From a virus: a stretch of 64,000 nucleotides of DNA. The stretch covers positions 1 to 64,000 of the IMG/VR virus record IMGVR_UViG_3300012920_000028, one strand, 5' to 3'. A program made the position numbers and the translations under genes. Shown here piece after piece: positions 10,211 to 62,771 of this stretch (its first letter is position 1; every line of letters starts with the position of its first letter). Below the pieces are notes generated by a model. It was given only the letters and a program-made list of their open reading frames with translations, was not told the DNA's origin and ran no database searches.

Positions 10211-10211
10211 C

Positions 10212-13200: not shown

Positions 13201-14990
13201 AAAACGTAGTCCGTGCAATCACCAATGCGTTCAATGATTGGGTCATCGCCTTCATCAAAGCGAACCAAAAACCGACGGACGCTATGAACATCACATTGAA
13301 CTCCGGTGGTCGCGGGAACCCGCTCCAACTCCGGCAGATGATTGGCTCGCTCGGGCAGCATCAATTGAACGGGCCGGGTCGTCCGAAGCACGGTTATAGC
13401 GCGAGGAAGGTCCTTTCCTGTTCACGGGACGACATGAACCCACGCGACCGTGGCTTCATCCGCACCTCCTACGCGAGAGGTCACGACCCCGATGGGTATT
13501 GGTTCGCCTCCACGGCCGGTATTCGTTCAACGATGGAATCTTCTCAGGGCGGAATCGCAAAGTCCGGCTACATGGAGCACAAGATGAAGCGGAACCTTGA
13601 GCACCTCATGGTGGACGACAAGCGTCGGGTCATTGACCTTCGGTCAGGGACAATCGTTTCTCTTTCAGTCGGAGGAGACAATCTGCATGCGTTCCACCCA
13701 CGCGGACCCGACAACAGCGACGGCCTCGATTTCGAAATCCAACCACTTCTCCTTGATTTTGAATGCAAACACGGGTTGAGCCTCTATGACTCGTGTGCCG
13801 AGTGCAGCAGCGGCACCCCTAACCTCCTCCCACGTGCCATCCTACCGGACAACATCAAGGCTCAAGTCGAAAAGGCAGTTGAGGGGAGAGAACTTGACGA
13901 AGAATCGAAGAAGGGCTTCCGTGATTCGTTGCGTTCCTATTACAACACGTGTCTGATTCAAATTGGCGAAATGATTGGTTCCACAGGTGCGGCAAACCTC
14001 GGCGAACCGGCTACTCAGGCGGGACTTCGTGCGTTCCACGGTGGCGGTCAAGGAACGGTTCCGACCGTGGACAGGCTTGTGCAGGTGTTAGAACTCGTGA
14101 AAAAGAAGCAAGAGCAACCGCAAACGACGCTTCTCCTCAAAGATGACTACAACACCCGAGAGAACGCCGAGCGGCTTGCTTCTTTCTGCACGACCGTGAA
14201 CTTCGAAGAGGTCATGGAGAAGGTCGAATACAACCCCGAGGAGTTCGAAATCGAAATCACCCTGAACATCGAAAGGCTGGAACTCTTCGAAATTGATGAC
14301 GAATGGGCGCGTCATACGCTCAAGAAGGTGTTCGAATCCGACGGCACTCGGAAGGTGACCTTCTTTGAAAGCCCAATCGCGAAGGTCCGATGCCGAGAAG
14401 ACGCACGTGACCTCCTCATCGCCCGACATATGCTCGGGAACATCCCGCTTTCGGGAATCAATGACTCCCAACTTGCCTTCGTTTATGACGACGGAGAGGG
14501 GCAATACGGAGTGAGCATTCGTGGACCAATCAAAGGCAGCGATGCGGTGAATATCCCGAAGTTCTGGCAAGACATCGTGGACTTCATGAGTGAATACGTG
14601 GACCTCTCCAAGACCAAGTTCACCGACTCATGGATGGTTTACAACATTTACGGACTCGAAGCATCCCTCAACCATCTGTGCGAATCCATTTACGAGCAAA
14701 TGAACGGAATGGAAGGTGAGAAGGGGATTGGGGAACTGGATTATCGCTACATCCGGGTCATGGCTGACTACATGGGGATTTACGGCGAACCTATCGGACT
14801 CAAGAAATCCGGACATATGGTGAAGTTCAACAAGAGCCTTCTCGCTGCCCTCGGTGGTGAAGACCCGATGCTCGCCCTGCACGGTGCAACGGTCATGGGG
14901 AACTATGATACGCTCAAGGGTCCGGTTGAGGCTATCGCCGCAGGCAAGCAACTCAACATTGGGGCACACTACCGTCGAAAGACGACATGA
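10212..14990 (+). CDS. rpo1: DNA-directed RNA polymerase largest subunit (Rpo1/Rpb1-like, A'+A'' in one ORF), divergent
   Basis: ILSPEEI, CGTC...CPGHFG Zn site, R.PALH, NADFDGD at 12231-12251, SGY bridge helix, GEPATQ...FH trigger loop, DYR....ADYM. Confidence 0.95.
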   Translation: MVIGEPEEVLEEEDLSVTGFFWFVPYDEIRHMERGEVTYDFDFPSPRFVPSTMQSARRWFTTSPEAAGLRTRADHMVVVKVSNIPFDPERFDEEKAEDWLSADIRHTGEETELAGYVVEPFQATLKVTMKNLSFFKETKEWAAVEVGILSPEEIRSMAKVKVTEEQIYASDEMSSPVVGGVEDLRMGTYAKDTPCGTCGLTWNEDFLKSCPGHFGYISLEVPVPNWFYLGGSKNPSQQSPLLYALNHTCMHCQRILLPDSKVELLERYVFNVRSMNLLNTAGYDLVRAEVRTLMDEHHGVKSSDSRPKEYVCPHCEKVSPQVSFALSAFSRYKHVFYPTNREYDDESDDVVTYPYEDVFRRLEDIPERDSAALGFSEGSVPSHMFFTDLPVAPVVTRPPATTPSGAYAPSDLSELYVAVLQVNNNIRRRRTELREDKAKRNAMSRSLFKAVAQLMTGQSSGIGSGGMKIGMAANGAMTPRNLRGVYDRIKGVGKQKNEMRRNVQSKVDEHVAYSVITPDPALQIDEIGVPYPVCFELTRRIEVTEENYDEMLSYVMNGDQEAIPKGKKTKDFDLSRYPGAKRVIRGNGTVSSLLEPARDFGESELDFALRQANFLDRKSNLLVGDIVERHLIPGDVVLFTRAPALHRQNLMAFRVVPVKTRSLSFNPSVCIPFNADFDGDAMRMYVLQSEEAIEEALETMRVETQMLHSRYGRTFLTFDQDEISGGYLLTFKNEPEAGTHPEKRSGWGFDDDGYPILSKARVLNILQAAFSRDEEGSLTYRTRFPPPITSGRFKGCYRGRDIISMFLPPGINARYENRTGQEIVIRNSVIGPGALDDRFFGTKAGLLAPAFIYRYGWEEGHRLLAEVTNEMSRVVFSAHVEYGFSLGIADISFIRPESKSDKEYFDLAEKGFKNQVDENGRPIRSLSPYVFIDDAMDMVESIIHDIDLKFEARNIEAIKDIDISFLNYVNEKGEEKTFETLSINMKEFVKDPIFAKENVVRAITNAFNDWVIAFIKANQKPTDAMNITLNSGGRGNPLQLRQMIGSLGQHQLNGPGRPKHGYSARKVLSCSRDDMNPRDRGFIRTSYARGHDPDGYWFASTAGIRSTMESSQGGIAKSGYMEHKMKRNLEHLMVDDKRRVIDLRSGTIVSLSVGGDNLHAFHPRGPDNSDGLDFEIQPLLLDFECKHGLSLYDSCAECSSGTPNLLPRAILPDNIKAQVEKAVEGRELDEESKKGFRDSLRSYYNTCLIQIGEMIGSTGAANLGEPATQAGLRAFHGGGQGTVPTVDRLVQVLELVKKKQEQPQTTLLLKDDYNTRENAERLASFCTTVNFEEVMEKVEYNPEEFEIEITLNIERLELFEIDDEWARHTLKKVFESDGTRKVTFFESPIAKVRCREDARDLLIARHMLGNIPLSGINDSQLAFVYDDGEGQYGVSIRGPIKGSDAVNIPKFWQDIVDFMSEYVDLSKTKFTDSWMVYNIYGLEASLNHLCESIYEQMNGMEGEKGIGELDYRYIRVMADYMGIYGEPIGLKKSGHMVKFNKSLLAALGGEDPMLALHGATVMGNYDTLKGPVEAIAAGKQLNIGAHYRRKTT

Positions 14991-17679: not shown

Positions 17680-18641
17680 AGTACCAACCTCTCTTCCAGC
17701 CGGACCACGGACCCATTCGCCCGATAGTCGATAACACGGTGATATTGGAGCCACAAGAGCGGTGTGTTGTGGTTCTCAAGGTAAATACGACGAGCCTTCC
17801 CATATGCGCCCCATTCTTCGACCGACATGCGGTGCTTTTCCGCAAGGAAAGACCGGATTTCTAACGGCGGGATGGTTTCACCAACCGGATAGCGGGAGAT
17901 GAAGACCCATAGTGTCCGGCAAGCCTTGAGGTTCACTACGGAGGTGCTTTCGGACCGTTCTGCGCTATCAAGGGACTTTCTCCACACCGTCAAACGGACT
18001 TCCCCGTCCATCTCAGTGACGTGAAGGTAGCGTTCCTTCTTCTCGCCCCTATGGACAAGACGCGCTCGGTCAAACGGCGTTTCCTCACGCACCTCCGGCT
18101 CCGGTTCGGGGAGCACGACAGGTGTCGGCTTTGGTTCCGCTTTTGGTTTCGGCGCATTGCCGAAAGAGGACAAGACGGATTGTCCGGGCGCGATTTCAGG
18201 AACCTTCTCTTTGGGCGGAGCCAATTCCTTGAGCGCGTCGAGAATGTCCTTCCGCTTGCACTTCCTTACGCACCCGAAGCCACCATCCTCTTTCACTTGT
18301 AGGTGATTCTTTCCGTTTCCGTCAGCCCCTTGCTTCGCACAAGAGGGACATTGCGCGGAATACCAGCCATTCCCTGACTTCCGGAGATTGACGAGGCTCT
18401 CCCTTGCTTCCCATACAGGGTTCCCACCGTCCGCCATGAGGAAAGGGAGAGGTTCACCGGAGTTGTGGGCGTGAAGGAGGACTTCGAGCCTCCCCATTTC
18501 CTTCTCGGTCTCGAACAACACGTGTCCATCTTCGATGCGCTGGTGCCTGAGCGCGTAGTCGGAGCGAACCTTCGAACCAATCAGTTCGAGGTACAGTGAA
18601 ACGGGGACTCTCATGGAACCGGAAAGCGAATCATCCGGCAC
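17676..18641 (-). CDS. Protein with primase-type Zn-binding domain
   Basis: AQCPSC...HL.......GC...C...DIL motif; coupled to polB. Confidence 0.5.
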   Translation of the reverse strand: MPDDSLSGSMRVPVSLYLELIGSKVRSDYALRHQRIEDGHVLFETEKEMGRLEVLLHAHNSGEPLPFLMADGGNPVWEARESLVNLRKSGNGWYSAQCPSCAKQGADGNGKNHLQVKEDGGFGCVRKCKRKDILDALKELAPPKEKVPEIAPGQSVLSSFGNAPKPKAEPKPTPVVLPEPEPEVREETPFDRARLVHRGEKKERYLHVTEMDGEVRLTVWRKSLDSAERSESTSVVNLKACRTLWVFISRYPVGETIPPLEIRSFLAEKHRMSVEEWGAYGKARRIYLENHNTPLLWLQYHRVIDYRANGSVVRLEERLVL

Positions 18642-19323: not shown

Positions 19324-19694
19324 AAAATCATCTCCTCGCGATAGGGTTTCTTGGCATCAACGAAAATCCATGAGCGTTGGAGAGAGTCCGGAAGTTTCCC
19401 TGCTTTCTTGGCGAAGAAGTCGTCCTTGGTTTCGGAGAAGAGGACCTCGATGTAGGGTAGGACATGTGTTGGTGCGACAATATCCGGACGTGTTCCACAC
19501 TTGAGACGGGCTTCCGTGCAGAAAGGGACGTCATGCTCAAGAAGAGTGAGGGCGACCTCGCAGACGCGGAGATTGTGCTCATACGTGTTCCCCTTGCTCA
19601 ATTTGATGACCCCCCAATGAGGTTTGAACATAGGGTCGAGATGTTCACGCGACCAATCGTTCAGTTCTTTCTGCATTTTCGAGGAGTACCTCAA
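19320..19694 (-). CDS. PD-(D/E)XK nuclease-like protein
   Basis: EH...TE.......RPDI......IEV. Confidence 0.6.
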   Translation of the reverse strand: MRYSSKMQKELNDWSREHLDPMFKPHWGVIKLSKGNTYEHNLRVCEVALTLLEHDVPFCTEARLKCGTRPDIVAPTHVLPYIEVLFSETKDDFFAKKAGKLPDSLQRSWIFVDAKKPYREEMIF

Positions 19695-20584
19695 AGAATA
19701 CCCTCCCACTCAAGGTCGTGAAGGTTTCCGTCTTGGTCGTAGTACTTCCCCTCATAGAAGAGCCGCTTCGAGACGATGTTCCCTACTACCGAAGCGGTCC
19801 AGCCGCTCGTTTCATTGCGAGCCGAAACGCCTTCCGCATTGAGAGTCTTCGCGATTGAGGCACGCGACATGCCGTCTTCGTGCATCGCGAACACACGTCG
19901 GACGGAATCCGCTTCCCGCGGCTCTATTTCGAGGACTCCCTTCAGTTCGGGGTCCCCTCTCCCGTCGGCTTCGTCAGCACTTCGTTTGTAGGCCGAGCGA
20001 TACCCCATAGGAGGCCGACCGACGTGGCGCCCCGCGTTCTTCTTCCCCTTCAACCCCGAGGCGGTCCTCTCGCTGATGATGTCCGCTTCCATCTGAGCGA
20101 CAGAAATCATGATTCGGAAGATGAGCATTCCCATGGCGGTCGTCGTGTCGATTTGTAGGTCACGGAAAACGAAGTCCTTCTCGGCTCGCTGAAGGGTCTC
20201 CGCCCATTCACCAGCATTTCGGACGTTTCGATGGAATCGGTCCATTTTTGCCGCGATAACGACGTCCCAGTTCTCCATTTCGCTCATCATGCGCTGGTAT
20301 TCGGGGCGTTGGGTGTTCGTCCCGCTGAACCCTTCATCTCGGTATTCCTCGACGACCTCCCACCCCTGAGCGGCGCAATAGGCACGGCATTCGCGAAGTT
20401 GCTGCTCAATGGAGGTCTCGGACTGGGTTCCTCCGTCTTTGTCGCTTGTGGAGATGCGAGCGTAGATTCCAGCCTTCCTTGCAGAAGGGGCCGTTGTGAA
20501 AAAGGGGGAAAGTGAAAGAAGCAAGGTCAATGAGGCATACCCAAAGAGGGCGAATAGGGATTCAATCATGGCTTGATTCCTCAC
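19691..20584 (-). CDS. Serine recombinase (resolvase/invertase catalytic domain plus recombinase-type C-terminal domain)
   Basis: IYARIST, QQ..C, DEGFSG...RP, DRFHRN, ERT..G, GRPP.GY. Confidence 0.9.
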   Translation of the reverse strand: MRNQAMIESLFALFGYASLTLLLSLSPFFTTAPSARKAGIYARISTSDKDGGTQSETSIEQQLRECRAYCAAQGWEVVEEYRDEGFSGTNTQRPEYQRMMSEMENWDVVIAAKMDRFHRNVRNAGEWAETLQRAEKDFVFRDLQIDTTTAMGMLIFRIMISVAQMEADIISERTASGLKGKKNAGRHVGRPPMGYRSAYKRSADEADGRGDPELKGVLEIEPREADSVRRVFAMHEDGMSRASIAKTLNAEGVSARNETSGWTASVVGNIVSKRLFYEGKYYDQDGNLHDLEWEGIL

Positions 20585-37529: not shown

Positions 37530-39068
37530 TCACTCCCCGAACTCGTCAGGCTCCTTCGCAATGATGATGTTGTCGATGCGCAGGAGGAGCGAAGCCGTCG
37601 CTGTTGCGCTCTCAAGCGCGCTCTTCACCACCTTGAGGGGTTCAACCACGTTCTCTTCCGCCATATCCACCACGCCGCCGGTATAGACGTTCAAACCGGC
37701 ATTCTTTGCGCCTTCCGCGTGAGCCTTCCTCAGTTCACGGAGCGTCGCAATTGGCTGAAGTTGTCCACTGTTCTCAGCGAGGGTGAGCGGAATGATTTCG
37801 AGAGCGTCAGCAAAAGCCTCGACCGCGAGGGATTCAAGGCCGCCCACGCTCGCGGCGTAGGTCCGGAGGTGTTGAGCCATTTCGACTTGAGAAGCACCGC
37901 CCCCGGCGAGAACCTTCCCCTCCTTTCGAGCGACGTGCACCACGCCGATAGCGTCGTCCATGGCGCGGCTGATTTCCTCGGCAGTCTGCTGGGTAGGGGC
38001 ACTGACGACGAGAGAAACCGCATTGGCGTTAGGGGTGTCCTTGAGAATGAAGAAGCCACGCTGACCTGCGCTGGCACTCACTTCCTCAATGCTTCCACAC
38101 GTGCCGAGGTCTTCGACCTCAAGGTCTTCGAGACCGGAAACGATGAGAGCACCCGTAGCGTCGGCCACAGCCTCAAGATTGGAAGCAGCGCAGCGACGGC
38201 ACGCAATGATGCCGTGGCGCGCGAACAGTTCCGCAAGGGCTGGGTTGATGTCCTTTGACGCAAGAACCACGCTTGCTCCGAGGCCGAGAATGTGGTCGGC
38301 CATTCCCTGCAAGAGATTGCGCTGGTTCGCACGGAAGGCCTCAGCGTCCTGCGCCGTGTTGAATTGAAGGTTCGTTCCCTTCGCCATTGCCGGAAGGTCG
38401 AGAGCACCGTCCACGAGCGCGATGGAGGCATTCTCAATGTCCGAAGGCATGGCGTTGTGCATCTTCACCTGACCGATGACAATTCCGTTCGGAGCGTAAG
38501 AGTCCGTGACGGGTGAACCGTAGCGAGGAATGATGTTGATTGAGCCCGGGGAAGCATTCTCCGTCGCCTCCACGCACAGGACTGCGAGATGGTCTTTCGA
38601 CTCCTCAGCAGACTTCCCCGTCATGGCGGTCTTCGCCACTTCGAGAAGGTAGTCTTCCGCAGGAAGGGTGAGCGTTTCGGCAACCTCCTGACACTTCTTC
38701 AAGGCCAGATGGTAGCCGCGAACAATGGTCGTCGGGTGGACCTTCTTCGCGATGAGGTCCTCCGCTTGCTTCAGGAGTTCACCTGTGATGACGATTGCTG
38801 ACGTCGTTCCGTCGTAGCACTCCTCTTCCTGCGTGCGCGCGACCTCGACCATCATGTGTGCCGTGGCGTGGGTGAAATTGGTTTCCTTGAGAATGGTGGC
38901 CCCGTCGTTCGTCACTACCGTACGACCGCTCCGGTCAACGAGCATCTTGTCCATTCCCATAGGGCCGAGGGTCGAACGGACCAATTCGGCGACAAACTTG
39001 CCGATTCCGATGTTGACCTCTTGGGCCGTCTGCGTCTTCTGCTGCTTGGCGTCTGTGGCTTGACTCAT
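37530..39068 (-). CDS. ths: Group II chaperonin (thermosome)
   Basis: STLGPMGMDKM, VTNDGATIL, DGTTS, HPT.I..GY, GGG..., EP..V...A..SA. Confidence 0.95.
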   Translation of the reverse strand: MSQATDAKQQKTQTAQEVNIGIGKFVAELVRSTLGPMGMDKMLVDRSGRTVVTNDGATILKETNFTHATAHMMVEVARTQEEECYDGTTSAIVITGELLKQAEDLIAKKVHPTTIVRGYHLALKKCQEVAETLTLPAEDYLLEVAKTAMTGKSAEESKDHLAVLCVEATENASPGSINIIPRYGSPVTDSYAPNGIVIGQVKMHNAMPSDIENASIALVDGALDLPAMAKGTNLQFNTAQDAEAFRANQRNLLQGMADHILGLGASVVLASKDINPALAELFARHGIIACRRCAASNLEAVADATGALIVSGLEDLEVEDLGTCGSIEEVSASAGQRGFFILKDTPNANAVSLVVSAPTQQTAEEISRAMDDAIGVVHVARKEGKVLAGGGASQVEMAQHLRTYAASVGGLESLAVEAFADALEIIPLTLAENSGQLQPIATLRELRKAHAEGAKNAGLNVYTGGVVDMAEENVVEPLKVVKSALESATATASLLLRIDNIIIAKEPDEFGE

Positions 39069-52048: not shown

Positions 52049-52514
52049 CCTCGATGAGAAGTGAGGGCGTATCGAAAAGGATGCTCGCCACGTTCGTCAG
52101 GTAGTTCTCAAACCCCGCGGCTTCGGTGAAATTGGAAATGCCGTCTTCTTCGAACTGCTCCGTCATAGAAGCGAGCAGTTGTGGCTCCGTCACGGCGGGA
52201 ATCGCGAACATCACGACCGTTGATTGCCCCCATTCTTCGAGGTTATACCCATGCACAGTTTCTCCTTCCACGAATGGGAAGGAATGAATGTCCAAGTGCA
52301 CGTTTGCTTTGGGGAGCAATTCGAAGAACTTCTTTGTGAAGGTAGTGTCGTTCGGGCGGTTAAGGTCGATGACCTCGCGGGGGATTTCCCCGACGAGACT
52401 TTCGAACTCAAGACCTTCTTCCGTGAGCGCCCTCTCAAGAATCGGGCGGATGATGGTTGAGCCGAAGTCATACTGTCCGCTTGGCGCGGCGTGGGGGAAG
52501 GTCAGGAGAATCAT
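51933..52514 (-). CDS. Zn-carboxypeptidase-fold hydrolase (N-formylglutamate amidohydrolase-like)
   Basis: TFPH, DLNR, LDIHS, LIEV. Confidence 0.6.
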   Translation of the reverse strand: MILLTFPHAAPSGQYDFGSTIIRPILERALTEEGLEFESLVGEIPREVIDLNRPNDTTFTKKFFELLPKANVHLDIHSFPFVEGETVHGYNLEEWGQSTVVMFAIPAVTEPQLLASMTEQFEEDGISNFTEAAGFENYLTNVASILFDTPSLLIEVNEEDDDAYSAVAAALVEGLRSFLSVGPSMTASSGTLP

Positions 52515-53203
52515 CTGTTCAGCCGCAGACGCTTGACCGATTTTACGCTACCGCCAGCGTTCCTTGGTTTCTCGTCACCAATCGGCCGACACTTGTTCCA
52601 TGTTCCTGTCCCGTGCGTACTGTAGTACCAGTACTTGTATTCGGGGCTCGCGAAGAAGGGAACGTGTTCAACGTAGTGTTCGAGGTTGCGGCTCTTGAGG
52701 TAGTCGGGGCGGTCGTCAATCCTGAACACTACCTTGTTCTCGGATTGGCTCCATACCGTTTCCGACATCAACTGAAGACGTTGAGTCATTCCGATACCGA
52801 CGATTCCCTTTCCGGCGCCGACGAGCCACAGTTGCTCGATGCCGTCGTTGGTCCCCTTTCGGACGAAGGTCTGGATTTCGTCAATGGCGATGATTCGACG
52901 AATCCGCTTGAAACCCGGCTTATTGGAAACCATGAACACACGTTCGATGACCTTATTCAGCGCCGCTACTCTCTCTTCCTTTCCTACGGGTGGGTGGAAG
53001 ACAATGGAAGGTGTCTTGGAAAGGAGAGCGGCATAGACCTCCATTGGAGTCTTGCACACACGTCCGAGGTCCGTGATTTCTGCCTTGGGGTCCACAAAGA
53101 TTGTGTGAAGGCCGTCCTTCTGAAAACGCTTGAACATCTCGGAGACGAAATACGTCTTGCCGCTGCGGGTCATTCCGAGAACTGCGGTATGTCGCTTCTT
53201 CAT
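52511..53203 (-). CDS. FtsK/HerA-superfamily genome packaging ATPase
   Basis: Walker A GMTRSGKT, FVDPK, Walker B IAIDEIQ, TQR; ~230 aa stand-alone ATPase; ATGA overlaps. Confidence 0.75.
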   Translation of the reverse strand: MKKRHTAVLGMTRSGKTYFVSEMFKRFQKDGLHTIFVDPKAEITDLGRVCKTPMEVYAALLSKTPSIVFHPPVGKEERVAALNKVIERVFMVSNKPGFKRIRRIIAIDEIQTFVRKGTNDGIEQLWLVGAGKGIVGIGMTQRLQLMSETVWSQSENKVVFRIDDRPDYLKSRNLEHYVEHVPFFASPEYKYWYYSTHGTGTWNKCRPIGDEKPRNAGGSVKSVKRLRLNR

Positions 53204-53697
53204 GTTCTCATAGAGCGCGTTTGAGACCATGCTACAACACCAGCACCAACGGCGAGAAGACCAAAGAGACGGCTCGGAGGGACGGCCATAAAGGACTCGG
53301 CGTAGGCCGGGAAGTTCTCCTTGAACCGTTGGCGAAGGTTGTTGTTGTCGGTCACCCGAAGCCATGCTACCGGGTTCATGACGTCGGGGTTCACGCCGCC
53401 GGTGTGCTTCAAGCCGAGAGCGTGACCGTATTCATGGGCGAGCAGGTCGAGGTTCCCCTTCGCACCGCTTCGCACCGTAATGGTGTTTCCAATGGTGACC
53501 CCTTGAGGGAAGTAGCCACGGTTCAAGATGTTGTAAGAGGCACGCGCCATGTCCCCTGCGTACCATTCCTGAATCTCTCCACTCGCGTGAATCGCGTTCA
53601 CGTATTGCGACCAATGTGCTTCGCTGAGGGTAGCAATCCGGACACCATCCTCGCCTACCGCGATAACGCGGAAAGAAGAGAACGATTCCGGCGTCAT
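53200..53697 (-). CDS. Metzincin metalloprotease with C-terminal TM
   Basis: HEYGHALGLKH plus Met-turn DVM. Confidence 0.85.
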   Translation of the reverse strand: MTPESFSSFRVIAVGEDGVRIATLSEAHWSQYVNAIHASGEIQEWYAGDMARASYNILNRGYFPQGVTIGNTITVRSGAKGNLDLLAHEYGHALGLKHTGGVNPDVMNPVAWLRVTDNNNLRQRFKENFPAYAESFMAVPPSRLFGLLAVGAGVVAWSQTRSMRT

Positions 53698-53701
53698 GTG
53701 T

Positions 53702-56700
53702 TCACCACTCGAACATGTTGAGGAACTCGTCCTCGTCTTCCTCCACCCAGTCGTGCCTTGAGGAGTTTTCCTTGATGAGACCCGCTTTGACCGCAAGACT
53801 GTAGTCGCCCATTTTCTTCCCGTCTTTCATGACGGTGTTTCCGAGCGTGACGAAGGAATAGACGCGGCCGGACGCCCATTGGTGCTGCTGAACACCGGGA
53901 CGGTGACCGGTGCGCCACGCCGCCAAACCCTTGTCGTACACCTTCTCAAGAATCGCCTTGTCGACACCTGTCGTCTTCGACATGCGGGTGAGGAAGGAGC
54001 CCTTCCCCTTCAAGGGACCATACAAGCGAGCGAACTTGGTTCGGTACTTGGAAGGCGTGGTTTTCATTCCCCGCGCCGTAGCCTTGATGTCCGATTTCCA
54101 GAATTCGTACGCTTTCGGGTCGTTCACGTCGTACTTGTAGCCTTGGTCAATCTCGTACTCGGCAATCGCCTTCTCGACAGATGTCAGGCCTTTCAGGTAC
54201 TTGGAAGGAATCTTCTTTCCACCGGGAGTACGGGGGTTCGGGCGAGGAAGATTCGACAGTTGCGTAATCGAAATGGTTTGGGCCGTGAGGGCTGAAGGGT
54301 AGGAAACGTCAGAAGGGAACCATGGGTTCGGGCGAGGAAGGTTCTCCTTCATCCAAGCATACGTCTTAGGTGCCTTCTCCTTGAGTTTGGCGCGGCCTTC
54401 GCCGATACCGGGGATGAAATAGACGCGGGAATACAGGGGGGCGCGAAGCCTGATTTCATCGAGGTCCTCCTGCATTTTACGGATGTTCTCGGCGTATTCC
54501 TTGTCTGTGTAGTACGCTCCGGGCTTCGTGTGCGGCGCTTTCTTGGTTCGGAAACCAATGGTGTTCTTCTCGTCGCGGATTTTCGCTTGACCGCCCTTTC
54601 CCTCACGCTTGTCGTTGTCGCCGAAGACGAAGAGGACCTCGGGGTGGTTCCGGACATATGTCGGAGTGATTTTCTTTGGTGGGTTGTCTTTCACTTCGCT
54701 TATGTTTTTCGCAGGTATTGTTTCTGGTGTGGTCCATTCCATACCGTTCAATGTGAGGTCAAGTGTTTCGGGAACCGATATTTCAAGTAAGGCAAAATCC
54801 TCATGGTTGGGCATCTTGGTTTTCCAAAACAATGCTTCTTCTTTTTTTGAAGCAAGGTAAATTCTTGGTTTGAATGATTGGATGTATTCTTCAAACTTCA
54901 TGTCCGGCGCTATCAAGTTTTTTTCTTTAGCAAATTCGTACAATTGGCCTTTCAATGCTCTTGTAAGTGGGCCATGTTGTGGAACAAGGCCATTTTTCTT
55001 GATGCTTGGTAGGTGTTCTTTCAATGTGAGATGGTACAGTTTTTTCGGCATCGGCAACTCTTCACCTCTTACGCTTTTGGCTGGGTTCTTCTTCGGACCC
55101 ATCAACACAGGCACTTTGCCGTACTTGCGCTTCTCCGTCATCCCAATCCACGGAACGTCGGGGCACGGAGGCATTCGGGAGATGTCGTGCTTGCGCGCCC
55201 AGCGCCACGGGTCGTGTCCCCACACCCACAGGCCGAGGAGGCGCCGTGAGACTTGGTTCTGCGTCTTCTGCTCGCGCACGAGGGGGCCTTTCTGGTCAGC
55301 GTTGTAGGGGAACGCGCCGTGGCGCTTCACGAAGCGCACCTGACGCTTGCACCAATCCCAATCGGTTTCTCCGTCGAGTGGGTCATCGGACGGGCCAGTC
55401 CATTCCTTCATGGCCTTCTCATAGTAGTTCTCGATGATGCGTGGCCCGATTTTGATGTAGTCCTTCGGGCCGGTCAGGCCGAGTTTGGCGCGCATTTTGA
55501 GGATGCGACGGCCGCTCACACGCCCACTCTTGATGCCCTGAGCGTCTGCTTCTTCTTTGGAGAGACCGGCCTTCTTCCCGAGGGGAGAATCAAGGAACGC
55601 CTTCAGTTCCTTGTTCTTCATGTTGATGAGATGAACCCACTCCTCGAACCACTCGAAGAGTTCCTTTGGTGGGTTTTCAATTTCCCACGGCTCTTCCCCC
55701 GGTTCCCATTCCAAGTGGTTTTCCATCTGGTGTCTTGTCCATACAGGGTACTTCTTCTTTGGTTCCCACACTCGATAGGGCTTTTGAGCCGGGTCAGACC
55801 ATGGCTTAAGGTTCCCACCACCTGCCGGGGAATAGAAGGAGCGACGGTACTTTTCTCGGGCCTGCTGGTCGAGGAAAAAGAACTCCACCCGTTCGACCTT
55901 CAGGTTCACGTCATCATCAGGGTTGAGTTCTGATTCTGTGGGGCCGAAGGAGAAGTTGTTCCGGAGGGTCGAAATCCAATTGATGTCTTGGAAGGGGAGG
56001 CGTGCTACGATGAGGACTTGGTTGGCGTGAGGGAAAAACTGCGCGACCGAAGTTCGTGTTTGAACGAACATGTCTGCTTTCTTCTTATCGGTGGTCCATG
56101 CACTGCCAAGTCCGTGCGTCTGCCATGACTCTTCGAGTTCTTCGCTCGAAGCGGGAGACCAAATCGCACGGTAGATGGGTATGGAGTCCCTCGAACCATA
56201 CAGCGATTTCCAATGTTCAAACAAGTGTTCGAGGAACCTTTTGCCGGAAGAGCCGGTGTAGCCCCAGCGGCGGAAGTTCCTCTTCATTTCCTTTTTGTTT
56301 TCTCTTTCCACGAAACGCAGCAGACCTTCCAAACCACTTGATGTAAGGACGTCCTTCAATCGGATTCCTTCAGGTGGGTTCCCCATCGGGAGGGCAGAAG
56401 AGTCAAGCAAAGCGGAGAACCTTTCGGCTTGAGCATTTGGAACAAGGACATGTGTCCGGTTCTCAACCGGAGAGCGAATCGTCCCTTCAGGGAGGTAGGA
56501 GTCGTTGAAGTACGAAGGGATGGCGAAAGCACTGTAGTCGCCACTATCCGCCATGTTGTTGAAGGAAATGATGCGGCGGCGTAGTTCCCTGTAATCCCTT
56601 TCAGCATCGGTCTCCGGGGCAAGACCCTGACCAAACGTCGCTTGCCTACCAAGACGTTTAGGCACTTCCTGCACGACTTCAGCGATGGGGACTGCTGGGT

Positions 56701-59392
56701 TCTCAAGGGGGATTTCGTCAATCCGAGAGAGGAAGTTCTTCCGGTAGTTCCCCGTTTCCATGTCGACGAAGAGGTCGAAGTCTTCCTTCGACGCTCGCGC
56801 GATTTGAGCGGGCATCAGGAGGGCGCGCTCCTTCGCTTCCTTCTTGCTCATACCTCCGCGCTCAAGGAGCATGGCTTCGAGAGCCGAAGTGGAACGGTTC
56901 TTCGGTCGGAGGTAAATGGAGAACATGTCGGGGAACAGGTCCTTGTACTTCTTCATCCCGCCAATGTTGACGTCGATGACGTTGATTGGGTATTTGAAAT
57001 CGGCGAATCGGCGGCCATACAGGTGACCGTTCTTCATGCGACGGTATTCGAGGAACTCGTCGTTCTGAATCATTTCCATGAACTTCGCCTTCGACACGAA
57101 GTGCTTGTCCACTCCGTCGCGCTCCTTCGGTCGTGGTGGCCGTGTCGTGTAGGCGAGGACCTCGCCCACTCCGGGGAACTTCTTCTTGAGTAGGCGAATC
57201 GAAGTGGACTTCCCCACGCCTGCTGGCCCGGAAATGCTGATGAGGCGAACGCGCGAAGCCTTCCTCGGATTGACCGCGACCACGGGCACTGCCGCCTGCT
57301 CCGGCTCTTCGAGTTGCACATCCTCGATTTGCTGAAGAGCACGGCCGAGTGTGAGGTAGATGGCGTTCACCGCCTCGCGCCCGAGGTCCATGTTTAGGTT
57401 CGGGAAATCCTTCCGGAACGTGAGGTCGAAGTTGCCCGTTCCGTTCGAGGCGCGCACATTGAGGTCATAGCCGTCGGGGATGACGTCTCCGAGTTCGGGG
57501 GCGTTGGTCGTGTTGAGAATGAGGTAGCCGTTTCCGCTCGTTTTGTTGGTGGGGTACCAGTAGTCCTTCGACGGGTCCACATTGTGTCGAAGGTATGGCT
57601 CGAACGCGGCCTCCATCAAGGCTGCTGAAATGTCTTGGACCCCGTAGTTCCACCTGTATTTGACCGAAGCCACCAAGGGACGCGGGTTCTGCCTCGGCTC
57701 GTTGAGGAAGGCCCGCAACTTCTCGACATGCTGCCTCAGATACCAGTTCTTGAAGTCTGCACCGTTCACTTTCCCGTCATAGTGCCCCGCCGACTTGAAC
57801 TCCTGAGCCATACCCGTCCACATGAACGGGTGGTGCGTGGCGATGTCAGCCATGAGCATGAACAAGGCCGCACCGTAGTATGGGCCGACCTGCGTTCGGA
57901 AGAAGTCCTCGGAGATGTTCCTACGCCCGATGTCCGATTCGAGCATCACCGAAACGATGTCGTCGAGGGGCTCGGGAATGTCGAGGTCGCCGGAGATGAA
58001 GGAGTCCCACATCATCTGAGCGCCTTTCGAGTGGTGGATTTCGTTTCCGCTATCCTTCTGAATGTTCTTCCCCGCGTCATGATAGAGGGCGAGAATGTAG
58101 ACCAAGTCAAGCATCGAGTAGTTCGATGCGATGTTCTCGTTTAGGTAGGCACGCACCTTCTTCCGAAGGTCGGAATCGAACCCGATGTCCTCCCACTTGA
58201 ACATCCGTCCTGAAGGGAATTGCTTCGTTGGCTCAAGGTGGTGACTGAGCCAGAAATAGCAGAACATTGTGTGAGCGTATTCATCTCCGCCATAGTGGAC
58301 GAAGTCGTAGTCCAAACCCGAGAGTTCCTCCAAGGCCGGGTGATAGAGCCGGGAGGGAGGTTGGATTTTGCTGCTGACCGGACCGGGATTGGCCCGAACT
58401 TCGAAAGGGTCCTCGTCCCCCTTCGGGACCTCTTCAGGTGGTGTGTAGTTGGGGTTCACGAACTGCTTGTAGGAAATGGTCGCGATGGAACCGAACTTCT
58501 TGTTGAAGAGGTTCACCATGTGTTGCGTGACGGCGTGGCAGAACTCGACGTCGTCCGAGCCCTTGTGCTTTTTTGCCTCCACTTCGCCCGCTTCGAGCAT
58601 AGCGTCGATATCAGCAATGAACTTCTCCTCGTCAAAGCCGAGGTATTTCTCCACACGGGAGTTCTTCACCTTGAATGTGAAGCGGTCGATACGGTCACGC
58701 ATGACGGTGTAATGCCGCTTCACACCTGTCGAGAAGGAAGCATCGAGGTACCATTGAATATCGTCGGCTGAAGTGAGCGAAGGCTCGTCCTTCGACGGGT
58801 GCGTGTGGTAGAAAGCAACCTCTTCGCCCGGGCGCTTGTTGATTTTGATTTTGGGCATGATGAGCGAGGCTCGGCGATGATAGATGTTCCCGTTCTTCGT
58901 GACCCACCCGTAGGATTCTCCGGTGAAGGAAACGAAAGACCACAACTTGTCGAGGAACGCCTTGTCATCGAGTTTGCTGTAGCGGTGCTTGGTGAAGTGC
59001 TTCTCCGGCTTGTCGATGACCATGCCGTGCATTTCGGCCTTGAACTCGCTCACCGAAGTCGGGTTCTTCAGCACGCCGTCGAAAGACAGGTGTCCCTTAG
59101 CGATAGTGACCATTCCTCCGGGGTTTGAGCGGACGACTGAAACTTCGTCGCACCGGATGAGAACGTGAACCATCTGTGGCTTTCGGTCGCGGTAGGGAAC
59201 GTATCGCCCTTGGTCGAGGAAGTGCTTCATGGCCTCGCGGGCTTCCTTCCTCTTCACTTGGCCGTCGAACATGACGAACCACGTTTGATTCTCGATGTCG
59301 AGAGTAGCCTCTTTGACGTTGAGAGAGCCAAGAGCCGAGCCGCCCCTCGGAAAGTGCGTGTACTTACGCACCTGTCTCGGACTCAGCGTCAT
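53702..59392 (-). CDS. 1896-aa multidomain polyprotein: JAB/MPN, HD, guanylate kinase, ART-like, DUF3140-like, Tpt1/KptA-like, VFGDN domain, DUF5824-like
   Basis: E..HTH.........SADD; H...YHD...HH...D; SGPAGVGKST/YTTRPPR..E.DG; YRA..S.WTT..E.E; INM..EL..SGRRI..WGHDP; LYHLT....I...GL; VFGDN..GGQA; AAWRTGHRPG. Confidence 0.8.
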   Translation of the reverse strand: MTLSPRQVRKYTHFPRGGSALGSLNVKEATLDIENQTWFVMFDGQVKRKEAREAMKHFLDQGRYVPYRDRKPQMVHVLIRCDEVSVVRSNPGGMVTIAKGHLSFDGVLKNPTSVSEFKAEMHGMVIDKPEKHFTKHRYSKLDDKAFLDKLWSFVSFTGESYGWVTKNGNIYHRRASLIMPKIKINKRPGEEVAFYHTHPSKDEPSLTSADDIQWYLDASFSTGVKRHYTVMRDRIDRFTFKVKNSRVEKYLGFDEEKFIADIDAMLEAGEVEAKKHKGSDDVEFCHAVTQHMVNLFNKKFGSIATISYKQFVNPNYTPPEEVPKGDEDPFEVRANPGPVSSKIQPPSRLYHPALEELSGLDYDFVHYGGDEYAHTMFCYFWLSHHLEPTKQFPSGRMFKWEDIGFDSDLRKKVRAYLNENIASNYSMLDLVYILALYHDAGKNIQKDSGNEIHHSKGAQMMWDSFISGDLDIPEPLDDIVSVMLESDIGRRNISEDFFRTQVGPYYGAALFMLMADIATHHPFMWTGMAQEFKSAGHYDGKVNGADFKNWYLRQHVEKLRAFLNEPRQNPRPLVASVKYRWNYGVQDISAALMEAAFEPYLRHNVDPSKDYWYPTNKTSGNGYLILNTTNAPELGDVIPDGYDLNVRASNGTGNFDLTFRKDFPNLNMDLGREAVNAIYLTLGRALQQIEDVQLEEPEQAAVPVVAVNPRKASRVRLISISGPAGVGKSTSIRLLKKKFPGVGEVLAYTTRPPRPKERDGVDKHFVSKAKFMEMIQNDEFLEYRRMKNGHLYGRRFADFKYPINVIDVNIGGMKKYKDLFPDMFSIYLRPKNRSTSALEAMLLERGGMSKKEAKERALLMPAQIARASKEDFDLFVDMETGNYRKNFLSRIDEIPLENPAVPIAEVVQEVPKRLGRQATFGQGLAPETDAERDYRELRRRIISFNNMADSGDYSAFAIPSYFNDSYLPEGTIRSPVENRTHVLVPNAQAERFSALLDSSALPMGNPPEGIRLKDVLTSSGLEGLLRFVERENKKEMKRNFRRWGYTGSSGKRFLEHLFEHWKSLYGSRDSIPIYRAIWSPASSEELEESWQTHGLGSAWTTDKKKADMFVQTRTSVAQFFPHANQVLIVARLPFQDINWISTLRNNFSFGPTESELNPDDDVNLKVERVEFFFLDQQAREKYRRSFYSPAGGGNLKPWSDPAQKPYRVWEPKKKYPVWTRHQMENHLEWEPGEEPWEIENPPKELFEWFEEWVHLINMKNKELKAFLDSPLGKKAGLSKEEADAQGIKSGRVSGRRILKMRAKLGLTGPKDYIKIGPRIIENYYEKAMKEWTGPSDDPLDGETDWDWCKRQVRFVKRHGAFPYNADQKGPLVREQKTQNQVSRRLLGLWVWGHDPWRWARKHDISRMPPCPDVPWIGMTEKRKYGKVPVLMGPKKNPAKSVRGEELPMPKKLYHLTLKEHLPSIKKNGLVPQHGPLTRALKGQLYEFAKEKNLIAPDMKFEEYIQSFKPRIYLASKKEEALFWKTKMPNHEDFALLEISVPETLDLTLNGMEWTTPETIPAKNISEVKDNPPKKITPTYVRNHPEVLFVFGDNDKREGKGGQAKIRDEKNTIGFRTKKAPHTKPGAYYTDKEYAENIRKMQEDLDEIRLRAPLYSRVYFIPGIGEGRAKLKEKAPKTYAWMKENLPRPNPWFPSDVSYPSALTAQTISITQLSNLPRPNPRTPGGKKIPSKYLKGLTSVEKAIAEYEIDQGYKYDVNDPKAYEFWKSDIKATARGMKTTPSKYRTKFARLYGPLKGKGSFLTRMSKTTGVDKAILEKVYDKGLAAWRTGHRPGVQQHQWASGRVYSFVTLGNTVMKDGKKMGDYSLAVKAGLIKENSSRHDWVEEDEDEFLNMFEW

Positions 59393-62300
59393 CGTCAGAC
59401 CTCATGAAACGTGCAAGCGGGGACACCGCCTCCGTATCGGGGAGAGCAGCGTCGGAAATGAACTCTCCGCCCGGGTTCTTCTTCGCAAGACGAAGTGCAC
59501 GGGAGTGAATCTCTCGGTCTTTCGAAGCATCGAACGACCTGTCCCTGAAATCATTCTTCATGGACTCGTCCTGACGAACGAACTCACCTGTGTCGAGGTT
59601 TTCTTCAGCCCACCCGAAGTCCCCTCTCGTTTCAGCCGGGCGGCGAACGCGGTAGCCGAGGCGCGGGTCCATGTTCACACCTACCGCGAACTCCGCGTCG
59701 CGTCGTGCTTGGTCATCATCCTGCATGTAGTCCATGAGCAATTGATTGTGATACAAGGTTTCCTCTCTCGCGCCTTTCTCATGCACGACACCGCCGATGT
59801 TCGGGCCTTCCTCGTCAAACACACCGTCTTCGGAACCGACAATGAAACCCGGAATCGAAAGGTAGTACGAAACGCCATGTTTGTCCTTCGGGAAACGCAT
59901 GAAGGCGTCAGGGGCGTAGTGAAGACCCCACTTCCCCGGGCTCAAGACGAGTTGGTTCTCGAACTCGCCCTTGAGGTCCTTGTTCACGTCGACCGGTTGT
60001 CCACCCCTTCCTCGAACACGTCCAGCACGCTGGTCATATCCACTGCTCATCCACGAGGTCGGTGTTCCAACAACCCTCGTTTCACTCTCTGTTCCGGGTT
60101 CAACACCATAGGTCATGCCGGGATAGTCGGGGTGAGAGTATTCGCGAGGGAAACCACCAATCCATCGCGGACCGTTGTTCCAGCCATAGAAGGGGTTCAT
60201 TCGAACACGTGTTAGACCGGACTTTGAAACAAAATGGCGACGGGGTTTCTGATGAGAGTATTTGAACCTCCGAGATTCGGGGTTCTGAATCGCTTCGACT
60301 CCGGTTCTTTTCCCCTTTGGCGCAGCCTTGATGTTGAAACCTCCCGCTTCGCTCACTTGCGTGTGCCGAATGTCGGTTGAATTGAGCGGGTCCTTGTCTT
60401 CACGGACGCGGAGGAGGGTCGGTGTGCCGCCAAGGCCGCGAGTCGTGTAGGGACGTGGCGTGACGCTATATTGGCTCCCTCCACGTTGATATGCGGTGGA
60501 ACCGGGAGCGGCGCGGTCCTGCTTGAAATAGAACGAAGGGCCACGAACCTTCTCAACATCAGACAGGCGCATAAACTGAACTTCCACAACCACCTTCGGC
60601 TCGACGAGGAGGATGTCGGGGTATTGCTCTCGCAATTTCGGTGAGCGAATCACGTGTTCGCCGTCGGCGTATTCCGTGCTCCTCATGGGGCCGATGACCT
60701 GACGGAAAAGCGCGGCACTCTCTTCTTTCGTGAGCCTACCCGGTCCGACATAGCCGACGGGAACATACACGTTCCCAAACTTCATCTTTTTCGCGACGCC
60801 AATCATGACGGTCCCGATTTCTTCCTTCTCGTCTTCGAACGTCTTGGCGGTCGTACCAATCCCCATGATAACGACGTCAAGCGTGTACTTGCGCTTCACC
60901 TTGTAGGTCTTCCCGTCCACGATGAGCACGAGTCCCTCGTGGCCGCGCGTCTTCACCTCAGACTCCCACTTTGCCTTGATGACCGGGTAGTGGTCGTCCA
61001 TCAGAATGAGAGGGTCAACACACCGGATGCGGTCGCCGTCAAGGTCGGCCACCTTCGCGATGCGCTCGTCAAAGGAAAGGTCCTGAACCTTCACGCCGTC
61101 CACAGAATAGACGTCGGTGATGACGAACTTCAGTTTGGAGAAGTCCTCGGGCGAGGGGTTGTCTTTCCGCAAGAAGCCGACGGCCGACGGTCCGAGAGGG
61201 ACGCCAACGTCGTCCAGAAGAATGGACTCACCGAGAACAGTCAGTTCATCGAAGCCGAGACGCGCGCACATCTCTTCGAAATCGCGCGTCAGGTGGTTGT
61301 CCCACCCGAAATGTCCGCCCTTCCCCTGCAGCATGATTGTGCGCTGAAGGTTGATTCCTGAGTCAAGACGTTCGCCGTTGATTCTGAAGCCACCCCGCTT
61401 GTTGAAGGAGAGCATCCCAAGTTGTCCGTCGTACTTCGTCATGACGGCGACCTTCTTTGCGTCCTCAAGCACGGGGCCGAGGTCGCGGAACGTCTTCTCC
61501 TTGAACCGCTTCTTCCACTTCTCAAGGAACGAAACGAACTCGTGGCCCTTGTCTTTGGCGGTGACGCACGGTGGCGCCGCCCGGGTGTCGCTGAATCCCG
61601 CGCCAATGCCGGCGCTCACGAACCACCTATCCACCACACCTTGCAAGTGCTCGAACCGCTCAATGACGTTCATGGGGTGTGCGGACATTGGATTGAAGTT
61701 CTTCAGGTCGCTGATTGATACGGGGATTCGACACAGGCCGGTTGAGCCTTCAAGGTCGTTCATCTTGAAGTGCATTCCGAAGAACATACCCGTAGTCTGA
61801 TTCTGGCCGAAAAGGCGGTCGTCAAGGACTGGAAGCATCTCGACCATGCCCTGCTCTCGGTCGTAGGTCCAATGCTTCTTGACTCCCCTCAAGAGGTTGT
61901 TCTTGCAGTATTCCTTCATGGCCTGCATGGTTTCGAAGCCGAAGCCGTTCACGTTCAGCCAGATTTGGAACGAGCGCCCGGTGAACTGAATGAGAATGTC
62001 GTGTTTCTTCGACACGTGTTTCGCAATCGTGTGGATGTGTTCGAGGTAGTCCTCAAACGCCGCCCCTGAAACATTGTCGAAATCGAGGACGGCCATCTTC
62101 GGGTAGCCTTCGGGTGAGGGTCGGAACTGGATGCCCCGAATCGCACGGTTGGTTCCTCCACTCACGGTGATTTCAGAACCCGTGGTCTCCGCGAAGGTCT
62201 CGAACTTGGCCGCGGACATGAAGCGTTGAACGTCGGCCTCGCTCTTGATTCGGTACATCTGACTCGTCGTGACGCCGTCTCCGCGACTACGGCTGTACTC

Positions 62301-62771
62301 CACCGTTTGAATCGGGTGGTGCATGGTCTTCCTCAAACAGAACGGGAGGAACACTCGGTTGTATTCCCCCACGAAGGTCTTGATGAGTTCGTGTTGCTTC
62401 TTCGCCTCCGGCGTATCGGAAAGGTCCGGAGCGGTTGGGAAGAAGCCGAGCGTGAGAGAGAAGCCACCGTGCACCTTGGCGTAGGCGTCGCGAAGGATTG
62501 GTCGGAGGACTTCCATCTGTTGCTTCGTCGTGAGGTTCACGTCGCGGCGAAAGAGCGGGTCTCCGGTGCTTGGGTGGGTCCAATCCGCGGCTTTCAGGGG
62601 AGGGGTGTTGTTGTCGAACGCCTTCGTCCCCATCTGAAACATCTTTCGTTGTCCGAGGAACTTCACGAGGAACTCTTCCATGTCGGACTCCGTGACGCCA
62701 AACCCGGCCGAAGTCACGTAATTGGTGTACCTCCCCCATTGTTCGAGAACACCGTCATAGGGAGAAATCAT
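59364..62771 (-). CDS. AEP primase/polymerase-like domain fused to ATP-dependent DNA ligase (LigD-like) with N- and C-terminal extensions
   Basis: LDFD and FTG.SFQIW (AEP-like); KYDG, GE, F..D, EGLV, KVK..TLD.VI.G, EP..VVEV, R.REDK (ligase + OB fold). Confidence 0.8.
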   Translation of the reverse strand: MISPYDGVLEQWGRYTNYVTSAGFGVTESDMEEFLVKFLGQRKMFQMGTKAFDNNTPPLKAADWTHPSTGDPLFRRDVNLTTKQQMEVLRPILRDAYAKVHGGFSLTLGFFPTAPDLSDTPEAKKQHELIKTFVGEYNRVFLPFCLRKTMHHPIQTVEYSRSRGDGVTTSQMYRIKSEADVQRFMSAAKFETFAETTGSEITVSGGTNRAIRGIQFRPSPEGYPKMAVLDFDNVSGAAFEDYLEHIHTIAKHVSKKHDILIQFTGRSFQIWLNVNGFGFETMQAMKEYCKNNLLRGVKKHWTYDREQGMVEMLPVLDDRLFGQNQTTGMFFGMHFKMNDLEGSTGLCRIPVSISDLKNFNPMSAHPMNVIERFEHLQGVVDRWFVSAGIGAGFSDTRAAPPCVTAKDKGHEFVSFLEKWKKRFKEKTFRDLGPVLEDAKKVAVMTKYDGQLGMLSFNKRGGFRINGERLDSGINLQRTIMLQGKGGHFGWDNHLTRDFEEMCARLGFDELTVLGESILLDDVGVPLGPSAVGFLRKDNPSPEDFSKLKFVITDVYSVDGVKVQDLSFDERIAKVADLDGDRIRCVDPLILMDDHYPVIKAKWESEVKTRGHEGLVLIVDGKTYKVKRKYTLDVVIMGIGTTAKTFEDEKEEIGTVMIGVAKKMKFGNVYVPVGYVGPGRLTKEESAALFRQVIGPMRSTEYADGEHVIRSPKLREQYPDILLVEPKVVVEVQFMRLSDVEKVRGPSFYFKQDRAAPGSTAYQRGGSQYSVTPRPYTTRGLGGTPTLLRVREDKDPLNSTDIRHTQVSEAGGFNIKAAPKGKRTGVEAIQNPESRRFKYSHQKPRRHFVSKSGLTRVRMNPFYGWNNGPRWIGGFPREYSHPDYPGMTYGVEPGTESETRVVGTPTSWMSSGYDQRAGRVRGRGGQPVDVNKDLKGEFENQLVLSPGKWGLHYAPDAFMRFPKDKHGVSYYLSIPGFIVGSEDGVFDEEGPNIGGVVHEKGAREETLYHNQLLMDYMQDDDQARRDAEFAVGVNMDPRLGYRVRRPAETRGDFGWAEENLDTGEFVRQDESMKNDFRDRSFDASKDREIHSRALRLAKKNPGGEFISDAALPDTEAVSPLARFMRSDDDAESETGA

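Follow-up and report, generated by a model that had tools for sequence, protein, structure and literature searches.

How does a segment of foreign codon usage come to lie, in frame, inside a GC-rich viral gene? The question is raised by a stretch of 64,000 nt (the window; positions 1 to 64,000 of IMGVR_UViG_3300012920_000028, a 72.8-kb IMG/VR record of an uncultured marine virus), in which a gene for a multi-module polyprotein carries an AT-rich module between two Asn-Pro (NP) dipeptides. A first reading of the letters alone, hereafter the original prediction, had taken this module for a recently acquired Tpt1/ADP-ribosyltransferase (ART)-like domain and NP-bounded units for the currency of exchange. 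Our analysis favours, with a probability of about 80%, a self-contained cassette of 134 aa that recently recombined in from a related virus and kept the codon usage of a lower-GC donor. The parts of the gene on which the argument turns are as follows, GC3 being the GC content at third codon positions.

53702..59392, minus strand: host gene P0001, a multi-module polyprotein of 1896 aa with 14 NP dipeptides (from the open reading frame, ORF, and its translation).
55116..55669, minus strand: body of the upstream DUF3140-like module (module aa 1242-1437), GC3 0.78, present in 115 of 119 relatives.
55088..55115, minus strand: tail of the upstream module, 'PVLMGPKK' allele, within the tract that differs from empty-site relatives.
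55082..55087, minus strand: left junction, codons AAC CCA (N1436-P1437), where similarity to P0108, P0110, P0150 and L004 begins.
54680..55081, minus strand: the AT-rich cassette, aa 1438-1571 (134 aa), with a predicted ART fold resembling the NAD+ lobe of Tpt1.
54677..54685, minus strand: right junction, codons AAC CCA CCA (N1570-P1571-P1572), where similarity to P0108, P0110 and L004 stops.
54323..54679, minus strand: downstream DUF7831 module, aa 1572-1690, GC3 0.71, present in 12 of 119 relatives.

Total GC falls to 0.38 in 200-nt windows at 54700-54999, with both flanks at 0.54-0.65. For the whole gene, GC at the first, second and third codon positions (GC1, GC2, GC3) is 0.55, 0.39 and 0.70, and it is the third positions that drop most: 40-codon windows across aa 1441-1580 have a GC3 of 0.35-0.45, GC1 and GC2 being also reduced in the module (0.48 and 0.33 vs about 0.55 and about 0.39). 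A two-change-point likelihood scan on GC3 delimits aa 1437-1579 (54656-55084), with values of 0.41 inside and 0.73 outside and a log-likelihood ratio of 28.6, the maximum among 200 codon shuffles being 9.5. The 2-lnL support intervals run over aa 1431-1458 for the start and aa 1566-1582 for the end; N1436-P1437 and N1570-P1571-P1572 each fall within one of them, and the maximum-likelihood left change point is aa 1437. Taken module by module, GC3 is 0.42 for aa 1438-1571 and 0.78 and 0.71 for its neighbours, while no other of 937 windows of 134 codons, drawn from 23 ORFs, reaches as low a value as the module (0.41), the remaining windows having a mean of 0.70, a standard deviation of 0.06 and a minimum of 0.51. 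The stretch is therefore AT-richer and rich in A/T-ending codons, as had been proposed, and the coordinates given for the shift, near KKNP (~55085) and KDNPP (~54682), are correct; the sliding GC and GC3 comparison suggested as a check returns both a difference from the flanking modules and breakpoints whose support intervals include the NP codons. Deviant codon composition, an operational mark of a horizontally acquired segment, is present here.

The distribution of the cassette adds to this picture. When 1.84 billion representatives were searched exhaustively with phmmer, 6 matched at E<=0.001, with a full-length match in one cluster only (P0108; 3.5e-78, 90% identity). Four clusters of the 90%-clustered collection carry the cassette, namely its own, P0108, P0110 and P0150, and BLAST places it in 2 of 119 polyprotein relatives after two run-through alignments were dropped; the IMG/VR related-locus search, with the whole protein or with the cassette, found none. 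At the nucleotide level, the copy at 8061-8468 of L004, a contig of 9587 nt with a GC of 0.48, was compared and is 93.6% identical in nucleotides and 88% in protein over 136 codons (synonymous and nonsynonymous divergence, dS and dN, 0.109 and 0.056). The modules that P0108 and P0110 share with the window's polyprotein are only 36-40% identical in protein, so that the similarity of the cassette to a distant copy stands far above that of the rest of the gene, as is characteristic of an acquired segment. Within L004, too, the cassette has less GC than the gene that carries it (0.42 vs 0.50; GC3 0.44 vs 0.505). In addition, L002 and L003, two IMG/VR relatives of P0110 that are without the cassette, have a GC of 0.43 and 0.41; lower-GC members of the family thus exist and are plausible donors. 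Matches to P0006, P0052 and P0096 were rejected as BLAST run-through from neighbouring modules (the cassette alone gives E>0.5), and a phmmer match to P0123 was discarded because this is a low-complexity coiled-coil repeat protein.

Similarity to P0108, P0110 and P0150 runs from N-P-A to D-N-P(-P), and the surroundings of the copies vary. P0108 and P0110 have the cassette after a guanylate-kinase module, and in P0150 an extra module of 130 aa, with NP at one border and NNP at the other, separates the cassette from the module that follows, which gives three contexts: guanylate kinase, cassette and DUF3140-like module; the same plus the 130-aa NP-bounded module; and the window's own. These comparisons agree with the proposal that NP-bounded units are what is exchanged. 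In the P0110 lineage, moreover, the ORF stops at ...EVKK (C-termini of P0108 and P0110; about position 8987 of L004) where relatives continue with EVKMNP and further modules; a natural C-terminus thus adjoins the NP site.

The module is absent from all closest relatives, that is, from P0003, P0004, P0005, P0011 and the contigs of runs X2 and X9. P0005, which is 96-98% identical, aligns as aa 1-1008, 1240-1433 and 1689-1896 and is without aa 1009-1239 and aa 1434-1688, its junction peptides being ...GNP/PKE... and ...KMNP/WFP... (the slash marks the joint); P0003 and P0004 show, where the window's protein has aa 1434-1675, a different stretch of 118 residues. Logan contigs were placed on 53702-56700; those of runs X2, X3 and X9 stem from other studies and are 98-99% identical to the window in the flanks, and run X1 is the likely source run of the window. 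For X2, X3 and X9 no contig lies over 54702-55101 or 55702-56301; this was not counted, and only joints and contigs running on beyond the fit were used. One X2 contig matches the 380 nt of 54300-54679 except for 7 letters and then runs on for 34 letters which, reverse-complemented by hand, are the upstream module's tail, Y-G-K-V-E-V-K-M-N-P, so that in the X2 virus this tail is joined directly to the P following the cassette; a second X2 contig, matching 55116-55504 except for 3 letters, approaches from the opposite side and finishes in the identical tail. In one X9 contig, 978 other letters separate 54671 from 55119; in another, 54328 is joined to 55122, and two modules are missing. X2 and X3 contigs join 55667 to 56373, where 8 letters fit either side and constitute an NPP-coding microhomology. 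The cassette site is thus a hot spot with at least four states, and a precise empty site, a further mark of an acquired segment, is found in the closest relatives (P0005, the X2 run-on and the X9 joints). In the X9 relative, the 978-letter alternative sits between the DUF3140-like and DUF7831 modules.

From run X1, a contig of 16,721 nt made by an independent assembler spans 53702-56700 with 1 other letter. Two short X1 contigs fit only 55083-55141, the tail ending in KKNP, and diverge at 55083, at the NP codons; in co-occurring relatives this tail is therefore connected to other modules.

As to the borders, the expectation of breakpoints at NP stands at both ends when the relatives' copies of the cassette are compared. 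In the empty-site genomes, the absence of exactly this segment is seen at the right NP, where the X2 joint falls, but not on the left, where the tract differing from the nearest empty-site relative starts about ten codons upstream of NP. It begins there because the upstream module carries another tail allele: the window's P-V-L-M-G-P-K-K-N-P is also found in P0010, P0038, P0041, P0042, P0052, P0053 and P0107, and the closest relatives have E-V-K-M-N-P. The left crossover may therefore lie in the stretch coding for the conserved K-R-K-Y-G-K-V, and the right one in the NPP codons; the X2, X3 and X9 contigs cease to fit at 55116-55122.

Starting from what is directly observed (the island, its borders, the distant copy, the empty and refilled sites and the family-wide coincidence of breaks with NP described below), we propose that the cassette entered the polyprotein gene of a GC-rich virus by recombination with a related virus. 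The donor would be a lower-GC member of the same virus family, and the direction would be that of gain. The polyprotein belongs to a large family of marine viral proteins in which variable, even permutable, modules, each ending in an N-P site, follow a conserved N-terminal core; the cassette is delimited by two such sites and has the same NP borders among different neighbours in other viruses. NP would mark a processing or linker site, which would make any junction there viable, and a microhomology of 6-8 nt, AAC-CCN-(CC), possibly aids the exchange. The recent acquisition originally put forward is supported by the foreign codon usage, by the 93.6% nucleotide-identical distant copy and by the absence of the module from the closest relatives.

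Several points weigh against this account. The left border is not clean with respect to empty-site relatives, the differing tract starting from ~55115, ten codons before NP, and these ten tail codons are GC3-rich (7 of 10), which makes a two-step history possible. The small GC3 contrast within L004 could identify a lineage near the donor instead of a second recipient, and dN/dS is 0.51, a value from 26 differences that is compatible with relaxed constraint. The X1 contigs possibly derive from the same reads as the window. Finally, gain is unproven, since loss by recombination with a virus of the other tail allele leaves the same pattern.

This last point leads to the explanation in which the module is an older resident of the lineage that the near-identical relatives lost at NP junctions. 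The four states seen at the site indicate that removals do occur, and the difference in upstream tail allele between the window and the empty-site relatives implies that the tail recombined in one lineage or the other. We nevertheless hold this explanation to be improbable, as a GC3 of 0.41, against a minimum of 0.51 for 134-codon windows elsewhere, allows little time in this background, the module is missing from every one of the closest relatives (P0003, P0004, P0005, P0011, X2 and X9), and its nearest copy resides in a polyprotein that is elsewhere only 36-40% identical. The AT-richness might also be unrelated to transfer and arise locally from function or amino-acid content, for instance from a domain rich in Lys, a signal within the gene or a slowing of translation; the lowering of GC1 and GC2, together with the copy in L004 being likewise AT-richer than its host gene, would fit such an effect. 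Synonymous positions show the largest drop, however, and a local effect leaves unexplained both the 93.6% identity to a distant relative and the absence from close ones, so that it appears very unlikely. Within the cassette and its surroundings we found no promoter-like site (0.6 expected), no Rfam family near threshold and no repeat structure.

Two further explanations concern the junctions themselves. Since the record is a metagenome assembly, and relatives sharing its flanks occur in the same run (the X1 contigs at 55083-55141), reads of two co-occurring viruses could have been joined into a chimera. The insert lies exactly in frame between two NP sites, though, and L004 and P0150 show the cassette with the same borders; in addition, the 16,721-nt contig of the second assembler spans the stretch and a contig of 124,231 nt is on record that encodes an identical protein of 1896 aa, both of these being possibly from the same reads as the window. 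There is, in our judgement, hardly any chance that the junctions are artefacts of this kind. An intein, homing-endonuclease cassette or transposon would account for an in-frame insertion of patchy distribution among modules ending in Asn, on which inteins rely for cleavage at their C-terminus. That the insert is such a selfish element has next to no probability, given that no intein, endonuclease or transposase family was matched in Pfam or PHROGs, that it is not flanked by terminal repeats, inverted or direct, of at least 10 nt, that its fold matches are ADP-ribosyltransferases and that the NP borders are common to all modules.

Regarding the identity of the cassette, all Pfam matches stay below threshold and fall in its first 25-30 residues: DUF7002 (E 0.013) and Tpt1/KptA (E 0.19, 12.2 bits). 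In a six-frame search of the whole record, the sole match of the Tpt1/KptA model is at 54980..55060 on the minus strand (E 0.01, 11.4 bits). PHROGs has no family for the cassette, and a profile from a 3-row alignment gave chance-level matches only against the sequences of the Protein Data Bank (CD58 at E 0.055). The distant phmmer relatives have repeated copies of the domain and score on PTS_2-RNA (1.3e-8), DUF7002, PARP, ART-PolyVal and Kinase-PolyVal. The structure was predicted by AlphaFold2 on a 7-row alignment (predicted local distance difference test, pLDDT, 66.1; predicted TM-score 0.52), in which the H of 'LYHLT' is invariant and the later motifs align ambiguously; a model from the 3-row alignment (pLDDT 48.6), for which Foldseek returned no meaningful match, was discarded as too uncertain. 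With the 7-row model, Foldseek ranks 1-13 are all Tpt1/KptA (probability 0.72-0.95), and VIA-align, over 48,161 chains, also places Tpt1/KptA in its top 4 (Z 7.4, 6.4, 6.2 and 5.5), with 70-72 residues aligned at a root-mean-square deviation of 3.0-4.0 and in the NAD+ lobe only (chain residues 86-180). DarT, Scabin, CARDS, the catalytic domains of pertussis and diphtheria toxins and PARPs come next, ART enzymes making up most of ranks 6-24, and the ESM Atlas neighbours at 0.93 include clusters with PARP in 16% and Arr-ms in 65% of their members. These results point toward the beta-sandwich ART fold of an NAD+-binding domain, with modest scores. The caution is due to the Pfam match, which covers positions 96-122 of the 177 in the model and falls below the cut-off of 26 bits, to residues 72-90 of the model being below pLDDT 50, to Foldseek E-values of 0.08-0.4 with a query TM-score (TMq) of 0.40-0.43, and to VIA-align Z values below 8, which are middling by the tool's scale.

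In the parts of the source that treat domain organisation, CthTpt1 has an N-terminal winged-helix RNA lobe (aa 1-85), which holds R18, H19 and R68 of the indispensable Arg-His-Arg-Arg tetrad, followed by a C-terminal NAD+ lobe (PMC6333775). The cassette is like the RNA 2'-phosphotransferase Tpt1/KptA (PF01885) in its best structural match and in an N-terminal motif equivalent to Pfam positions 96-122, and unlike it in aligning to the NAD+ lobe alone: its 134 aa hold no counterpart of the RNA lobe, nor of the three tetrad residues out of four that sit there, and the upstream neighbours differ between contexts. With DarT, Arr, PARP and the toxin catalytic domains it appears to share the ART fold, no membership having been detected at the sequence level. 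Since there is no RNA lobe and the Pfam score is under the cut-off, we regard the cassette as ART-fold and Tpt1-NAD+-lobe-like and not as a Tpt1; of the 'Tpt1/ART-like' assignment, the fold of the NAD+ lobe is retained on the strength of Foldseek and VIA-align, and membership of the Tpt1 family is not. On the basis of the model, the cassette would most likely be an accessory enzyme that uses NAD+ to modify a nucleic acid or protein of the host or of the virus.

The cassette is one unit of a larger system. A query with the C-terminal 657 residues of the polyprotein identified 212 proteins at E<=0.001 among 5142 candidates (1042-3318 aa), which puts the family at no fewer than 212 proteins; the contigs that bear them reach ~142 kb. 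The precomputed Pfam content of these proteins varies widely and includes glutaredoxin, NUDIX, SET, ITPase, acetyltransferases, NDK, ligase and PAP2, while Pfam on the 1896-aa protein itself finds Guanylate_kin, DUF7831 and DUF5824, with weak HD and weak DUF3140. Module counts refer to the 119 listed relatives (BLAST, at least 60% of the module covered): N-terminal core modules occur in 96-103 of them and DUF5824 in 105, and of the 101 relatives with both the DUF3140-like and the DUF5824 module, 21 have the two in inverted order.

An N-P site is found at every junction of the window's polyprotein, the NP borders being common to all its other modules as well. The 1896-aa protein has 14 NP dipeptides where 5.6 are expected from composition, and the other large ORFs of the window, with the exception of a 1135-aa neighbour, have counts near expectation. 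Across 120 family proteins, NP occurs 1790 times vs 575 expected (3.1-fold), the second highest observed-to-expected ratio of any dipeptide. Among the internal boundaries of BLAST high-scoring segment pairs against the 119 relatives, 229 of 486 are no more than 3 aa away from an NP and 365 no more than 10 aa, compared with 4.5% and 15% of random positions, although these boundaries are not independent because the relatives share ancestry. The 1259 distinct NP sites prefer P/V/A at -3, R/K/L at -2 and P/S/R after NP, giving a module-end consensus of [P/V/A]-[R/K/L]-x-N-P; as judged from sequence, the site looks more like a recognition site than a bare dipeptide. The NP-to-NP(P) similarity in three neighbourhoods and the concentration of boundaries near NP sustain the earlier idea that NP-bounded units are the currency of exchange.

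Asn-Pro is the self-cleaving bond of FlhB/YscU ('NPTH') and of reovirus mu1 (N42-P43), and the 'NPGP' of 2A skipping peptides, with the consensus D(V/I)ExNPGP, acts on eukaryotic ribosomes. The present sites resemble these systems in having an N-P dipeptide between functional units, and any cleavage here is putative, by analogy. They differ from 2A in that 1 of 14 is NPGP, in the P/S/R that follows NP in the family and in the prokaryote-like gene organisation. The sole NPGP, at 58385-58396 (aa 333-336), is 2A-core-like, and its likeness to 2A is probably a coincidence, given that organisation. Hints that touch on Asn-Pro cleavage are indirect: the conservation of the site, the freedom of module order and the lineage whose ORF stops at the N position. 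It is in this regard conceivable, though we hold it as a tentative idea, that the NP sites are processing sites, either Asn-Pro self-cleaving or cut by a viral protease, and that the polyprotein is a plug-and-play rack. Cassettes ending in the site would then be inserted, removed and reordered between co-infecting viruses, the AAC-CCN-(CC) codons being the only sequence in common at the exchange. A by-eye reading of aa 112-314 (58451-59059), a module kept in 98 of 119 relatives, suggests a JAMM-like H-x-H...S-x-x-D motif, and its ESM Atlas neighbours include JAB-clan clusters (0.81-0.86), a weak lead only; no solved structure was matched by sequence, and Pfam at E<=0.1 finds no peptidase family in the 1896-aa protein. 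The module is thus a candidate processing protease as a lead only.

The nearest described systems are the polyvalent proteins of phages and of conjugative elements and plasmids, which, in the portions of the paper that present them, combine many domains, are proposed to be processed into units and have this processing role ascribed to a metallopeptidase (MPTase) domain (Iyer et al. 2017, PMC5512222). The window's polyprotein is likewise a very large viral protein with many unrelated enzymatic domains in variable architectures, and distant relatives of the cassette occur in proteins that score on ART-PolyVal and Kinase-PolyVal. It is unlike the polyvalent proteins, as far as those portions describe the MPTase, in having no Pfam peptidase and only the by-eye JAMM-like motif with its weak leads, and unlike them also in a family set that is largely one of nucleotide metabolism (guanylate kinase, HD, NUDIX, glutaredoxin, ITPase, NDK and ligase, from precomputed Pfam). 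The main text of PMC5512222 contains none of the terms 'guanylate kinase', 'Tpt1', 'linker' or 'shuffling'; N-P junctions are a feature of the window's family. Compared with phage genomic islands and mosaic exchange, the compositional anomaly, the patchy distribution and the high identity to a distant lineage are alike, whereas what is exchanged here is less than a gene, an in-frame part whose junctions are tied to a motif of two residues. In the literature searched, with most subscription journals outside its scope, there is no description of this polyprotein family or of N-P-delimited modules.

Elsewhere in the polyprotein, aa 900-1241 (55670-56695) comprise three more NP-bounded modules of intermediate GC3 (0.58-0.61), a region that includes the aa 1009-1239 missing from P0005; these modules are probably older or differently sourced cassette acquisitions. 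The neighbouring ORF of 1135 aa (59364-62771, minus strand) has a weak match to a DNA ligase C-terminal domain (24.9 bits, cut-off 27.5), is enriched in NP (5 vs 1.9 expected) and has at codons ~790-930 a GC3 of 0.51, the second lowest stretch of the window. It may be a second modular polyprotein carrying its own island.

The remaining genes place the virus in its setting, the following being those of known type.

10164-14990: largest subunit of an archaeal-like RNA polymerase, 1608 aa.
14953-17754: family B DNA polymerase (PolB).
19691-20584, minus strand: gene of the serine recombinase/invertase type (phrog_95, E 1e-68).
37530-39068: Cpn60 chaperonin.
52511-53365: FtsK/HerA-type ATPase (packaging), 284 aa.

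A DNA methylase and a PD-(D/E)XK nuclease are also encoded in the window, and 14 of 16 further ORFs are without a PHROG family. The best solved relatives of the RNA polymerase subunit are archaeal Rpo1N/A' chains (E 4e-78), above eukaryotic Pol III and Pol II, with bacterial beta' chains ranking far below; PolB, compared with 50,697 phage records, has its top matches in haloarchaeal tailed viruses, which are 23-25% identical. Overlaps of 4 nt between genes or GGTGAT-like motifs just 5' of starts are common, which indicates a prokaryotic host. The virus group itself appears to be undescribed.

Together, these findings provide a case of in-frame cassette exchange within a gene, in which the empty, filled and alternatively filled states of one site are seen along with a near-identical distant copy. 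They turn what would be called domain shuffling in polyvalent proteins into the exchange of a unit that is itself defined, as is its border, a short site with N-P at its end, within a marine viral polyprotein family that is undescribed as far as searched and whose viruses encode an archaeal-like RNA polymerase, PolB, a chaperonin and an FtsK/HerA-type ATPase. Should the plug-and-play organisation prove true, undescribed marine viruses with an archaeal-type RNA polymerase would possess a protein-level counterpart of integron cassettes, and the transfer of the ART cassette would be so recent that its flanks are still 98-99% identical to those of the empty site.

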